DNA from: Candidatus Diapherotrites archaeon CG10_big_fil_rev_8_21_14_0_10_31_34
GTDB lineage: Archaea > Iainarchaeota > Iainarchaeia > Iainarchaeales > 1-14-0-10-31-34
Direction of reading: 5' to 3'
Assembly (NCBI GenBank): GCA_002763225.1
Contig: PFAI01000049.1
Span: forward strand, 1-18,838
DNA length: 18,838 bases
Shown: piece after piece, positions 1,416-18,838 of the stretch
Numbering within the stretch: the stretch's first letter is position 1
Layout: each line of letters opens with the position of its first letter
Program-made: the position numbers and the translations under genes
The notes under the pieces: model-generated
Seen by the model: the letters and a program-made list of their open reading frames with translations, nothing else
Told to the model about the DNA's origin: nothing
Database searches by the model: none

Positions 1416-1876
1416 TTTTTGTCCTCCTTTTTCTCTTCTTTTTTGTGTTCATGTTTTTGATCAAACTTTTTTGAAAAAGTTTGCATTCCTAAAACAGATT
1501 TTGCTTTGGTTAAAAGTTTTTCTTTTTTTGATTCTTTTTTTTCTTCACCTTTTTGTTCAACTTTTTCGGAAAAAGGTTGTTCTTTGATTTCGTTTAACTC
1601 TTCAATACCAGAAGAAAACTTTTTTTGTGAAACAATTTTTTTTATTAATGAACCAGTCATTGTTTCAGGAACATATGCTCCACCAGCAATTTGTTTATTG
1701 CATTTACTGCATTCATAAATTCCTGATGCTTTTCTTTTCAGTATTCCATGATTACAGTCAGGGCAGTTTTGTTTTTGTTTTTGCTGTAATTCAACTTTTA
1801 AAACTCTTTTTCTTATTCCTACCCCATATCTTGAACCAAATCTTCCTGTTGAATGAACTTTTTTTGTTTTGCTCAT
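1412..1876 (-). CDS. rpl37ae: 50S ribosomal protein L37ae (eL43) with long charged C-terminal extension
   Basis: TKKVHSTGRFGSRYG, CPDC...CSKC zinc finger, GGAY; roughly 70 extra K/E-rich residues containing two repeat-derived segments. Confidence 0.95.
   Translation of the reverse strand: MSKTKKVHSTGRFGSRYGVGIRKRVLKVELQQKQKQNCPDCNHGILKRKASGIYECSKCNKQIAGGAYVPETMTGSLIKKIVSQKKFSSGIEELNEIKEQPFSEKVEQKGEEKKESKKEKLLTKAKSVLGMQTFSKKFDQKHEHKKEEKKEDKK
1455..1483 (+). repeat. AT-rich TTTTG-hairpin repeat copy inside rpl37ae tail
   Basis: TTTTGATCAAACTTTTTTGAAAAAGTTTG; stem CAAACTTTTT/AAAAAGTTTG; encodes QTFSKKFDQK on the minus strand. Confidence 0.8.
1551..1579 (+). repeat. AT-rich TTTTG-hairpin repeat copy inside rpl37ae tail
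   Basis: TTTTGTTCAACTTTTTCGGAAAAAGGTTG, near-identical to the intergenic copies at 8551 and 9029; encodes QPFSEKVEQK. Confidence 0.85.
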
Positions 1877-8471: not shown

Positions 8472-8580
8472 ACACAGCGAAGCTGTGTAAGGCGTAAGCC
8501 ACTTTTTTTGAAAAAGAGTTTTTGATTAAACTTTTTTCTGAAACAAAGGTTTTTGTTCAACCTTTTTTTGAAAAAGGTTG
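8472..8580 (+). repeat. hairpin cluster immediately 5' of tRNA-Val
   Basis: ACACAGC-GAA-GCTGTGT (8472-8488), GGC-GTAA-GCC (8491-8500), degenerate AT hairpins at 8501-8552, and a full copy TTTTGTTCAACCTTTTTTTGAAAAAGGTTG (8551-8580) ending 1 nt before the tRNA. Confidence 0.8.
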
Positions 8581-8581
8581 T

Positions 8582-8653
8582 GGGCCTGTGGTCTAGTGGT
8601 ATGACGTCTGCTTGACGTGCAGAAGACTGCCGGTTCGATTCCGGCCAGGCCCA
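8582..8653 (+). tRNA. tRNA-Val (GAC), no intron, CCA not encoded
   Basis: Acceptor GGGCCTG/CAGGCCC-A; anticodon stem TCTGC/GCAGA with loop TTGACGT; T arm GCCGG-TTCGATT-CCGGC. Confidence 0.95.
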
Positions 8654-8933
8654 TCCGAGCTGCTCCTCGGAAGGGAGCGTGCTACTTTCAGTAGCACTGC
8701 TTTAAAACGCGAGTAACGCGTGCTATCTAAAGATAGCACTGCAATAAGGGTTTCGCCCCTTAACAACAATGCAGGACATTCGCTGCGCTCAGTCCAGCTG
8801 CTCCTCAGTCACGATTCCGATCGTGAGTCACGGTGCACGGCTCAAAGCCGTGCTAGCGCTGCTTTATGCAGCGCACAAGCGCCAGCCGATTGAACGGCTG
8901 AGAGCGTGCTATCTAAAGATAGCACTGCAATAA
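8654..8933. repeat. GC-rich nested hairpin mosaic (REP/BIME-like or structured RNA)
   Basis: Exact 30-bp direct repeat GCGTGCTATCTAAAGATAGCACTGCAATAA at 8718-8747 and 8904-8933, variant at 8677-8700, GCTGCTCCTC at 8659 and 8797, plus at least six further short inverted repeats. Confidence 0.8.
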
Positions 8934-8990
8934 TTGTCACGCCCAGTTAACATTTGTACACTATCTTCGCTTGGACTCAATAGAACTGCT

Positions 8991-9083
8991 TTTTGATAAA
9001 ACTTTTCGGCTGGACTGAAAGCCCAATTTTTTGTTCAACCTTTTTTCTAAAAAGGTTGTGTTAAACCTTTTGAAAAAGGTTTA
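8991..9083 (+). repeat. cluster of TTTTG-hairpin repeats at the 3' end of the coiled-coil gene
   Basis: Half copy 8991-9006, TGGAC-TGAAA-GCCCA (9011-9025), full copy 9029-9058, and copy 9059-9083 whose last TTA is the stop codon of the 597-aa gene. Confidence 0.8.
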
Positions 9084-10874: not shown

Positions 10875-10940
10875 TTAATCAACCTAAAAAATAACACAAA
10901 TAGAAAATAAAAAGGTTTGTTTAATGGGATTTTAGCAGCT

Positions 10941-10985
10941 CGACTGAAAGTCGTACATTTTGATAAACCTTTTGAAAAAGGTTTA
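10941..10985 (+). repeat. composite GC mini-hairpin + TTTTG-hairpin abutting tRNA-Ala 3' end
   Basis: CGAC-TGAAA-GTCG (10941-10953), then TTTTGATAAACCTTTTGAAAAAGGTTTA (10958-10985), directly adjacent to the discriminator base. Confidence 0.8.
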
Positions 10986-14259: not shown

Positions 14260-14532
14260 TCAGTCAACTTTCACTCCTAAAAAATCAAAAATCATTTTTT
14301 TTATTTCAAAAGCTTTTTGATGATTAAGGGAAACATGCAAACCATAATCAACTGGTTTCTTAAACAAAAAATTTTCTTTAATTAATTCTTCAGCAACTTC
14401 ATTAACTAAAAAATGATCATTTGGTTTAAAACCTTTCTTCAGATTATCAAAAGCTGTGTGGCTGTTACCCCAATTTCTTCTTCTTGCTAGTTTGAATAAA
14501 AGTTTTGCTTTAATCAAATCATGTTTGTCCAT
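14260..14532 (-). CDS. small hypothetical protein, probably winged-helix-like
   Basis: 90 aa with WGNSHT..NLKKG, a helix EVAEELIKENFL and a wing-like KPVDYGLHVSLN; ATG lies about 25 nt from a TATA box. Confidence 0.7.
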   Translation of the reverse strand: MDKHDLIKAKLLFKLARRRNWGNSHTAFDNLKKGFKPNDHFLVNEVAEELIKENFLFKKPVDYGLHVSLNHQKAFEIKKMIFDFLGVKVD

Positions 14533-14538
14533 TTAAAA

Positions 14539-14564
14539 ATACTTTGAAAGTATGGATTTATAAA
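14539..14564. promoter_or_regulatory. palindromic operator ATACTTT-G-AAAGTAT and bidirectional TATA box TTTATAAA
   Basis: Perfect 7-bp inverted repeat at 14539-14553; self-complementary TATA at 14557-14564 about 24-25 nt from both divergent ATGs. Confidence 0.6.
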
Positions 14565-14587
14565 CCTTTATTTTCGTTTATTGTTGT

Positions 14588-14905
14588 ATGGAAGAAGAAA
14601 CAAATTTAGTGAAATTTTTTGGAGACAATCCTTTTGTTAGAATACTTGACTCTTTGATTGACAATATTGGAGAAGACTATTCTAAAAAAGAGATTCAGGA
14701 ACTGGCTGGGATAAGCAAGGCTTCCTTGTTCAGTCACTGGGCAAAACTGGAAGGGCTGAATTTGGTTAAAGTCACAAGAGTTTTTGGAAAAACAAAATTA
14801 TTTACTTTAAACACAAAAAGCCAGCTTATAAAAGACATCTTAAAATTTGAAGCAAGAATGATTGAAGAAACAATTCCAAAAGAAACTATTTCAGTGAAAG
14901 CTTAA
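14588..14905 (+). CDS. winged helix-turn-helix transcriptional regulator
   Basis: YSKKEIQELAGISKASLFSHWAKLEGLNLV HTH followed by wing TRVFGKTKLFTLN. Confidence 0.85.
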   Translation: MEEETNLVKFFGDNPFVRILDSLIDNIGEDYSKKEIQELAGISKASLFSHWAKLEGLNLVKVTRVFGKTKLFTLNTKSQLIKDILKFEARMIEETIPKETISVKA

Positions 14906-17505: not shown

Positions 17506-18838
17506 TCAAATCACCTCTTTTTGAATTAAAATTTTTTCTTCTTTTTGCAGCACAAGTTTATCCCCTTTATTGTGTTCAGCCGGCGGAACGGTTGCGGACG
17601 AAACCGCGAGCGGACAGTTAAAATGTTCTCCTTTAATATAGCCATGAACAGGACAAACACTAAAAGTCGGAGTAATAGTGTAATAAGGCAATTTAGTGTT
17701 TTCTGCAATTTTTTTCACTAATTGTTTGCAGGTTTCTCCACTGCTCATTCTTTCTCCTAAAAAAGTGTGAAAAATTGTCCCTCCAGTGTATAAATGCTGG
17801 ATTTGATTTTGGTGTTCTATTGCTGTAATTGCATCTTCAGTATGGTTTACAGGCAATTGAGTTGAATTAGTTAAATAAGGTGTATCGGTTCCAGCAGTAT
17901 AAATTTCTGGATGAACTTTTTTATCTAATCTGGCTAATCTATATGAAGCTGATTCAGCCGGAGTTGCCTCCAAATTATATAAATTATTTGTTTCTTTTTG
18001 GAACTCAAAACATTTGTTTCTCATAAAAGTTAATGTTTCAATTGCAAACGCTTTTCCTTCTTCAGAAGCAATGTTTTTACCTAAAAAATTCACACAAGCT
18101 TCATTCATTCCAATTAAACCAATAGTAGAAAAATGATTATTGAATGTTCCAAGATAAACTTTAGTAAAAGGCATTAAATTGTTTTTCAAATTCTTGTTAA
18201 TTATTTCTCTTTTAATTTCCAAAGATTCTTTTCCTAAATTCATGTAATGCTCTAATTTCTGAAAAAACTCTTTCTTTGTTTTATTTTCATATGCTATCCT
18301 ATTCAAATTAATTGTTATGACCCCAATGCTCCCTGTTGCATCCCCTGGCCCCCACATTCCTCCGGGGCGGTTAATTAATTGAGAAGTATCCATGTTTAGT
18401 CTGCAACACATTGCCCTAATACTTTTTGGATCTAAATCAGAGCCAACATAATTCTGGAAATAAGGAATACCATATTTTGCTGTAACATCAAACAATAATT
18501 TTGAGTTATCTGAATCCCAGTTAAAATCTTTAGTTAAATTATAAGTCGGGATAGGAAAAGTGAAAATTCTTCCGTTTGCATCTCCTTCTCTCATTACTTC
18601 CAAAAAAGCTTTATTAACCATGTCCATTTCTTTTTGCAAATCACCATAAGCAAACTCTTGTTCTTTTCCTCCAACAATAGCTTTTTCGTTTTTCATGTCT
18701 TCTGGAACAGTCCAATCAAAAGTTAAATTAGAAAAAGGATACTGTGAACCCCATCTGCTCGGAATATTCAAAGAATAAACTAATTCCTGCATACATTGTT
18801 TTGTTTGCCTGTAAGTTAAACTATCTGCTTTAATAAAA
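17506..18838 (-). CDS. nrdD: class III (anaerobic) ribonucleoside-triphosphate reductase, large part (5' partial)
   Basis: FTFPIPTYN, AMCCRL, NLEATPAES, YTGGT, TPTFSVCPVHGY. The frame stays open past ATG 18792 to the right edge, and it ends before the RxxGY motif. Confidence 0.95.
   Translation of the reverse strand, partial: FIKADSLTYRQTKQCMQELVYSLNIPSRWGSQYPFSNLTFDWTVPEDMKNEKAIVGGKEQEFAYGDLQKEMDMVNKAFLEVMREGDANGRIFTFPIPTYNLTKDFNWDSDNSKLLFDVTAKYGIPYFQNYVGSDLDPKSIRAMCCRLNMDTSQLINRPGGMWGPGDATGSIGVITINLNRIAYENKTKKEFFQKLEHYMNLGKESLEIKREIINKNLKNNLMPFTKVYLGTFNNHFSTIGLIGMNEACVNFLGKNIASEEGKAFAIETLTFMRNKCFEFQKETNNLYNLEATPAESASYRLARLDKKVHPEIYTAGTDTPYLTNSTQLPVNHTEDAITAIEHQNQIQHLYTGGTIFHTFLGERMSSGETCKQLVKKIAENTKLPYYTITPTFSVCPVHGYIKGEHFNCPLAVSSATVPPAEHNKGDKLVLQKEEKILIQKEVI
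17577..17612 (+). repeat. GC-rich hairpin pair inside nrdD C-terminal tail
   Basis: CAGCCG-GCGGAA-CGGTTG and GCGG-ACGAAA-CCGC, then GAGCG; resembles CAGCCG-ATTGAA-CGGCTG-AGAGCG at 8883-8906. Confidence 0.6.

Follow-up and report, generated by a model that had tools for sequence, protein, structure and literature searches.

A MITE is defined by sequence-conserved terminal inverted repeats, a target duplication of fixed short length, and a cognate IS. REP-like mobile repeats have been described from bacteria (PMC6006769, PMC3116915, PMC3733652), and in one survey, as far as its accessible text extends, REP-type Y1 enzymes were not seen in archaea (PMC6006769). The word "archaea" is also absent from the main text of the paper on the Ssn GIY-YIG system (PMC11893778). 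For the tRNA introns of Asgard archaea, a 2026 preprint put copying, mobile elements, and reverse transcription to the test and, in its available portion, left their arrival open (10.64898/2026.10.13.758758). Our literature search returned no description of a two-hairpin element family; since subscription journals and bioRxiv supplements lay outside its coverage, a prior description is possible. The locus presented here, a hairpin-rich island behind a tRNA gene, is best read, with a probability of roughly 0.55, as an insertion hotspot of a mobile DNA element some 45 nt long, which is non-autonomous, carries no gene, and consists of a first hairpin (H1), a linker, and a second hairpin (H2).

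The window, that is, the whole 18,838-nt stretch of DNA that was analysed, is contig C32 of an archaeal genome (G000; 1.04 Mb, 31% GC, 81% complete), and it carries archaeal exosome, proteasome, eL15, and eL37a genes. The island is found directly 3′ of tRNA-Val(GAC), between a PP-loop gene and a convergent coiled-coil gene. Elsewhere in the window, two divergent small ORFs (90 and 105 aa; 14260-14905) between an eIF5A-like gene and metG have no Pfam match and look like a small toxin-antitoxin or regulator pair. An earlier, sequence-only reading of this DNA had described positions 8654-8990 as a GC-rich mosaic of hairpins. The GC content is indeed 0.51 there against 0.31 for the whole window, and all nine of the hairpin strings that were listed are present exactly, beginning, in the order of that reading, at 8679, 8707, 8720 (and again 8906), 8746, 8774, 8809, 8835, 8856, and 8883. 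The island contains nine perfect hairpins with a stem of at least 6 bp, where 300 dinucleotide shuffles gave a mean of 1.1 and a maximum of 6. The folding z-scores are −7.0 (RNA) and −6.7 (DNA) for the forward strand and −5.1 (RNA) for the reverse strand. The inventory was nevertheless incomplete, as the first hairpin (8654-8671) had been missed; the hairpin at 8707 is incidental, since it occurs only once and is disrupted in the homologous composites on contigs C55 and C1; and the limits were drawn too narrowly, because A/T-rich copies of the same family continue on both sides, at 8519-8580 and 8990-9081.

A metagenome contig (L485), which may derive from the same sample, is identical to the locus over 3,912 nt, and short contigs from four other sequencing runs, none of which spans the island, match parts of it without differences. 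The junctions seen in these short contigs most likely belong to paralogous copies or to other organisms and were set aside. No look-alike of the stretch was returned from the other genomes compared.

The unit has a simple grammar. H1 possesses a 6-bp stem and a 6-nt loop, which is mostly TTYCGY; it is followed by a linker of 8 nt (7 nt in a second class), by H2 with a 7-bp stem opening in G-C and a loop of either 5 or 13-15 nt, and then by TG or TA. H1 may be GC-rich or A/T-rich, and H2 is sometimes missing. The A/T-rich hairpins of 28-30 nt around the tRNA represent H1 plus linker of this family, as is seen in their fusion to GC-rich H2 and in their docking, which follows the common rule. Parsed in this way, the island is a mosaic of about six copies of a gene-less two-hairpin element of some 45 nt, rather than one RNA. 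With its neighbours it reads as follows.

8519-8580, reverse strand: A/T-rich copies of H1 plus linker upstream of the tRNA, the first beginning 1 nt from the tRNA 5′ end
8582-8653, forward strand: tRNA-Val(GAC), the host target (Rfam RF00005, 71 bits); the discriminator base is 8653 and CCA is not encoded
8654-8699, forward strand: U1, consisting of H1 (8654-8671), a 7-nt linker, H2 (8679-8697), and TG; it begins at the first base past the discriminator
8708-8741, forward strand: U2, lacking the start of H1; the remaining H1 arm, the linker, and H2 (8720-8739)
8718-8747, forward strand: left copy of a 30-nt exact direct repeat, a probable target duplication, the last 3 nt of which overlap the start of U3
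8745-8800, forward strand: U3, consisting of H1 (8745-8762), an 8-nt linker, and an H2 of the long, 14-nt loop type (39.7 bits)
8801-8808, forward strand: 8-nt junction, which, starting from a 5-nt overlap with the U3 end, extends a U1-type H1, presumably through a template switch
8809-8855, forward strand: U4, canonical (6-6-6 / 8 / 7-5-7), 64.4 bits, a member of the training set; it forms the left half of a tail-to-tail doublet
8854-8900, reverse strand: U5, a second canonical unit, running on the opposite strand; 46.6 bits, likewise a member of the training set
8904-8933, forward strand: right copy of the 30-nt exact direct repeat
8931-8988, forward strand: U6, decayed, with the 7-nt H1 loop subtype and a long-loop H2; 77% like the copy on contig C45
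8990-9081, reverse strand: A/T-rich family members, namely H1 (9036-9058), linker, and a short H2 extending down to 9009, with remnants at 8990-9006 and 9062-9081

The composite of U1 and U2, approximately 90 nt in length, recurs at three further places in the genome with 93-95% identity, which indicates that composites move. U5 shares the central TA with U4, so that H1 lies outward at both ends of the doublet. U6, taken alone, folds weakly (−1.7 kcal/mol, DNA). The H2 of U2 carries a TAAA loop variant that is private to the island: it is found in two of the 16 such hairpins in the genome, both of them here, and the 30-nt repeat is therefore a local duplication. This repeat flanks the insert formed by U3 to U5, with an H1 within 3 nt of each insert end.

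The parse also bears on a claim of the sequence-only reading, that of a unit which occurs twice, the second time with additional hairpins nested inside. The repeated frame was found at 8659-8700 and 8797-8927 as claimed. In the first copy, the 6 nt said to be enclosed are the end of an H1 arm and the start of the linker, not a hairpin loop. In the second, the frame is real, and its origin is most simply read as a chimera, the right part of which is the local 30-nt target duplication. Serial insertion into a hairpin loop was only partly right, the private direct repeat being the better explanation of the nested copy. Alternatively, the doublet may have inserted into the H1 arm of a U1-type unit. 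In a plausible history of the island, U6 would have arrived first, U1 plus U2 would have followed at the tRNA end, and U3, the junction, and U4/U5 would have come last with the 30-nt duplication; that U6 preceded U1 plus U2 is a supposition on our part.

BLAST of the island against its own genome yields dozens of matching places. A descriptor scan of the genome gave 43 matches, a few of them false or double readings, as compared with 0 and 1 in two block shuffles. A covariance model (R1) produced at least 69 matches in G000, where 101 of 157 candidates were scored, and 17-74 matches in each of five congeners; overall, 30 of the 61 genomes searched contain matches (E ≤ 0.01), as do 41 of 151 in a phylum sample (E ≤ 0.001). 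Inspection by eye places the best R1 matches in distant families at tRNA ends, within tRNA introns, and in one RNase P-like RNA. Unit-like hairpins were observed inside two RNA genes (G000:C47:1687-1826 and L345), which, on the basis of their motifs, we take to be RNase P-like. Two motif scans of viral contigs gave no match. A degenerate motif scan of genome contigs returned 119 stretches, of which the 80 listed all came from unrelated bacteria, and these were treated as chance; a loose descriptor with many false matches in coding regions served for the viewing of junctions only.

Covariation was assessed on 22 gapless copies (21 from G000, one from G003), in which 96.5% of the cells are paired and 12 of the 13 pairs show changes on both sides. 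The covariation score of 0.76, compared with 0.19, was reached by none of 500 shuffles, in a test which leans favourable because the copies had been picked with a hairpin descriptor. Among 125 copies there are 51 different H1 arms, so it is the fold that is kept and not the sequence. The mismatches over these copies are balanced (17 G-T and 15 A-C; 11 and 3 in H1 alone) and thus overall give no sign of selection on one RNA strand.

The tRNA-Val genes of the five congeners reveal what happens at the same site in other species. Those of G001, G003, and G005 are followed by different canonical units, that of G002 by a decayed unit, and that of G004 by a longer A/T-rich hairpin; no empty allele was found among the five. 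The proposal of a BIME-like hotspot of mobile repeats is consequently borne out, since the modules recur throughout the genome, their stems covary, and the hairpin insert at this tRNA end differs in each of the five congeners. The competing suggestion of the sequence-only reading was a structured RNA co-transcribed with the tRNA. As a rival explanation we considered such an RNA as a host-beneficial signal for stability, processing, or termination. It would account for the strong folding, the location in a tRNA trailer, and the presence of some hairpin here in every congener. Its content, however, differs in each species, units are transcribed in either orientation and also lie within coding frames, 68 of the 118 tRNA genes examined have no unit at the 3′ end, and the mismatches do not favour one strand. 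At the gathering score and E-value thresholds of Rfam nothing but the tRNA matched, so that no known RNA class accounts for the island (the best hit inside 8654-8990 scored 19.7 bits where the cut-off is 67), and a scan for terminator-like sites of the bacterial type found none. We regard such an RNA as a very improbable explanation.

Docking was examined at 118 tRNA genes, comprising 28 of the 29 listed in G000, 30 of 38 in G002, 30 of 32 in G005, and 30 of 35 in G003. An H1-first unit begins 0-5 nt from the tRNA 3′ end in 50/118 genes (35 of them within 0-1 nt), and a unit on the opposite strand lies within 0-5 nt of the 5′ end in 36/118, figures which lean towards the result because the motif lists behind them were tuned after viewing the same flanks. 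No gene has its first unit 6-120 nt behind the 3′ end, and at the 5′ end the unit is farther away in three; an oppositely oriented unit is the nearest in one case at the 3′ end and in nine at the 5′ end. An earlier descriptor gave 43/118 (3′) and 35/118 (5′), as compared with 3/118 and 1/118 at control offsets, 16/765 after stop codons, and 6/784 before start codons. The same rule is seen elsewhere in the window, where a full unit with an A/T-rich H1 (10936-10983, reverse strand) begins right behind the discriminator of tRNA-Ala(GGC). Both tRNA ends carry the same subtypes. A mirror copy of the 5′ flank, transferred to the 3′ flank via the acceptor stem, was considered and rejected, since tRNAs with units at both ends carry different ones (by eye). 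Two units lying 1.5 kb from each other in G001 proved to enclose tRNA genes and not a transposase or 16S gene.

Seven tRNA introns were viewed by eye; in five, the units face outward and an H1 lies at each splice site or only a few bases from it, and inverted pairs of units make up whole tRNA introns. H1 thus starts at all four pre-tRNA processing sites, an arrangement that invites an RNA-templated route, in which RNase P, RNase Z, and the splicing endonuclease would cut unit-bearing leaders, trailers, and introns of pre-tRNAs exactly at H1, a reverse transcriptase would switch between the resulting RNA ends and tRNA ends, and the cDNA would recombine into the chromosome. The precise end, the ragged other end, and the long variable duplications described below (14 host-sequence rows for 408 units) may also speak for it, these three features resembling target-primed reverse transcription. 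Against it, a reverse transcriptase is present in one of the six genomes of the genus (G002), where units are fewest, and was found in none of G022, G031, and G041, which lie outside the genus and are rich in units; over all 61 genomes it occurs in nine and does not track unit number. Nor is CCA encoded after the discriminator in any of the 118 tRNA genes, the mismatches show no overall excess of G-T over A-C (17 vs 15), the bias in H1 alone notwithstanding, and identical subtypes occupy both ends. We consider this route unlikely. Selection may account for part of the flush positioning seen at splice sites, stop codons, and 5′ ends.

Units also intrude upon genes. Many overlap stop codons and supply the last bases (by eye). 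Two genes, nrdD and rpl37ae, contain in-frame copies that not all congeners share. In nrdD, the part encoding the C-terminal tail holds an in-frame unit with a second, partial H1 (17553-17606, reverse strand), placed directly after the last conserved Cys-Pro; at this site G001 has one unit, G004 two, G002 and G005 decayed traces, and G003 none. The long C-terminal extension encoded by rpl37ae contains A/T-rich H1 plus linker in frame at 1455-1481 and 1550-1578 (reverse strand), copies that are similar in G003 and absent from G001, G002, and G005. By adding C-terminal tails to proteins and supplying stop codons, units reshape genes in these reduced genomes.

Gene starts provided a few separate observations. 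A supposed Y1-like leader on contig C15 was dismissed, as it is a unit that has inserted where an eIF1A-like gene begins and is accompanied by an 18-nt duplication. At L229 (G000:C15:8301-8800) and L438, the unit lies just past the start codon, and the duplication rebuilds the ribosome-binding site and start codon downstream. Antisense units at L365, L381, L419, L432, and L228 lie at a short Arg-Gly-Gln coding motif near the starts of small proteins, which we take to be a pilin-like signal; units at this motif always follow a GCCC-like run.

Exact direct repeats of host sequence of at least 14 nt accompany 21 of 408 units, a count in which one event is entered on both strands and three rows go back to one ancestral event. 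Fourteen of the 21 end within 4 nt of the H1 start, a zone covering 9 of the 47 scanned positions, and they measure 14-33 nt. A cruder test gave a less clear-cut picture, with 16/229 as against 7, 7, and 0 of 224 at shifted positions. The duplications are real and anchored at H1, and they are rare, being visible at about 4% of units. Two loci deserve separate mention. One tRNA 5′ end common to three species (L217, L226, L263, L290) has a 16-nt duplication that surrounds an A/T-rich unit and, behind this unit, the tRNA's first bases in inverted form, a signature of copy-back. At L452 (G000:C47:12001-13800) a Fic-domain gene has on each side a 19-nt tRNA 3′ end joined to roughly 36 nt of a unit, and the locus looks like a one-gene cassette integrated at a tRNA.

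There is very little doubt that a unit with covarying stems exists in many copies, that it has polarity, H1 facing the target, and docks flush at tRNAs on both strands, that it turns over between species, and that a minority of copies have long direct repeats. How it moves is harder to say. The mechanism that we favour as a whole, to which we would give an even chance, is that a structure-specific enzyme acting on single-stranded DNA joins the foot of H1 to a 3′ end in the target, after which the unit is copied. The putative enzyme would recognise the two-hairpin fold, and the 3′ end to which it attaches H1 by its 5′ foot would be generated in the target, with a preference for stem feet, for instance that of the tRNA acceptor stem or of a resident unit; position 37/38, which sits in a loop, goes against this preference. 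Synthesis would proceed through the linker and H2 and often beyond, and template switching at short overlaps would generate the ragged far ends, the composites, and the tail-to-tail doublets. Re-joining upstream of the nick would leave a duplication of 14-33 nt. Selection would then retain those copies which RNA processing removes as leader, trailer, or intron, or which spare a reading frame.

The search for a mobilising enzyme covered the Y1, GIY-YIG, reverse transcriptase, and Cas1 families. Y1 transposases number none in G000 (81% complete), and were found in one of the five congeners and 18 of the 61 genomes overall. GIY-YIG genes are present in none of the six genomes of the genus and in 34/61 overall. 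For Cas1, the integrase of a casposon-type system, the counts are 0/6 and 7/61. Lineage-built profiles run against the six frames of G000 gave nothing significant (best E 0.03-0.2). No cognate IS was recognised among the 115 ORFs adjoining units in G000 (by eye) or at Y1 loci. Across 77 loci centred on candidate mobilising genes and on integrases, R1 gave five matches and no flanking pair; of 30 Y1 loci in relatives, not one has units on its flanks, a single match at one of them lying about 700 nt away, and none of 30 GIY-YIG loci has units on both sides, two having one unit in a nearby tRNA region. The REP-like single-strand DNA system of the sequence-only reading therefore holds as regards hotspot behaviour, while an enzyme of the REP type was not found in these searches.

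These counts speak against the idea of an archaeal REP/REPIN proper, whose Y1 HUH transposase (RAYT-like), missing from the assemblies or acting in trans, would move single-stranded doublets. Pair 3 of H2 is recurrently mismatched (35/125 copies) and CT is conserved at the H2 foot; a recurrent stem mismatch and conserved hairpin-foot bases recall REP features. The mosaic clusters and inverted doublets also match those of BIMEs and REPINs, as far as the latter are described in the accessible text (PMC3116915, PMC3733652). Yet a GTAG, GTGG, or CGTC tag was seen at either hairpin foot in 0/125 copies, no Y1 locus is flanked by units, and long duplications are, to our knowledge, not a product of Y1 enzymes. 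The Y1 proteins observed in archaea, moreover, were of the IS200 subclass only, according to the part of the survey that is available (PMC6006769). A REP system in the strict sense is accordingly quite improbable, more so than the RNA-templated route.

LAGLIDADG genes docked at tRNAs provided a further lead, as they occur in those four genomes of the genus that have the most units and are missing from the two with the fewest. On contigs C13 and C42 of G000 (L450, L451), each of two free-standing LAGLIDADG-like ORFs runs into the 5′ part of a tRNA gene and ends there, and 15 of 17 homologous loci contain a predicted tRNA, mostly Leu, Pro, or Ile. Spread without a dedicated enzyme can thus be imagined, whereby breaks made at tRNA genes by LAGLIDADG nucleases or integrases are repaired by host enzymes that copy hairpin DNA from nearby or ectopic sites, and recurrent rounds together with selection ratchet the junctions towards gene ends. 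The distribution within the genus and the tRNA at 15/17 loci fit this proposal, as does one insert with an inverted copy-back of target sequence. A host activity of the right kind is exemplified by primase working across discontinuous templates; archaeal PriSL, in the accessible account, anneals 2-4 GC pairs and polymerises across templates (PMC12019639). Outside the genus, however, the link is weak, LAGLIDADG being found in 5/13 genomes with at least three unit matches and in 8/42 others, and G022 (97% complete) has units and no LAGLIDADG. Repair of breaks also leaves unexplained the fixed two-hairpin geometry under compensatory change and the H1-first order. It ranks with the RNA-templated route as a doubtful explanation.

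Returning to the preferred reading of a mobile DNA element, we tentatively suggest, with less confidence than for the hotspot itself, that the units form a class of archaeal miniature mobile DNA, with an enzyme of its own or served by a host pathway, which is written H1-first at the four cut sites of pre-tRNA, and that an inverted pair at position 37/38 creates a spliceable intron de novo. The element may in this way show how archaeal tRNA introns arise. Introns made up wholly of inverted units, with H1 at both splice sites, render one route of intron origin testable, and, if it is true, the units would be a direct and ongoing source of tRNA introns in small-genome archaea.

A comparison with known systems places the element close to several and inside none. 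With REP, BIME, and REPIN sequences, as portrayed in the available text, it shares short palindromic non-coding repeats that are kept in structure, mosaic clusters, inverted doublets, an occasional intragenic position, and non-autonomy (PMC3116915, PMC3733652, PMC6006769). It differs in having two hairpins and a fixed linker per unit, an archaeal host, no GTAG/CGTC tag, and no unit-flanked Y1 gene, and in docking flush at tRNA ends and splice sites with some duplications of 14-33 nt. The SRM/NTS (dRS3-type) repeats of the Ssn GIY-YIG system are likewise dispersed, clustered hairpin repeats, thought, in the accessible text, to be handled as single-stranded DNA (PMC11893778); GIY-YIG, by comparison, is found in 0/6 genomes of our genus, and none of the 30 loci from relatives has units on both flanks, two having one unit in a nearby tRNA region. 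MITEs resemble it as gene-less miniatures, and a doublet with H1 at both ends is like their terminal inverted structures, to judge from the available accounts (PMC3184786, PMC11602168). The ends of our element are conserved in fold (51 H1 arms in 125 copies), single units are common, the duplications are long, variable (14-33 nt), and mostly absent, with none of a fixed short length, and no cognate IS was recognised among the ORFs next to units in G000 or at Y1 loci. Elements of tyrosine integrases at tRNA genes (attL/attR; SSV and pNOB8 types) also target tRNA ends, duplicate the tRNA 3′ end, with a duplication that may begin in the T arm, and have been proposed as a route of intron gain, according to the accessible part of that paper (PMC3293823). 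Units, on the other hand, also duplicate ordinary gene starts and ends, dock at 5′ ends on the opposite strand, and lack an integrase or fixed core. The element is REP-like in behaviour but is not a REP; as a structure-selected, tagless mini-element with strict polarity and long, variable duplications, it points to a movement of DNA that matches none of the families tested.
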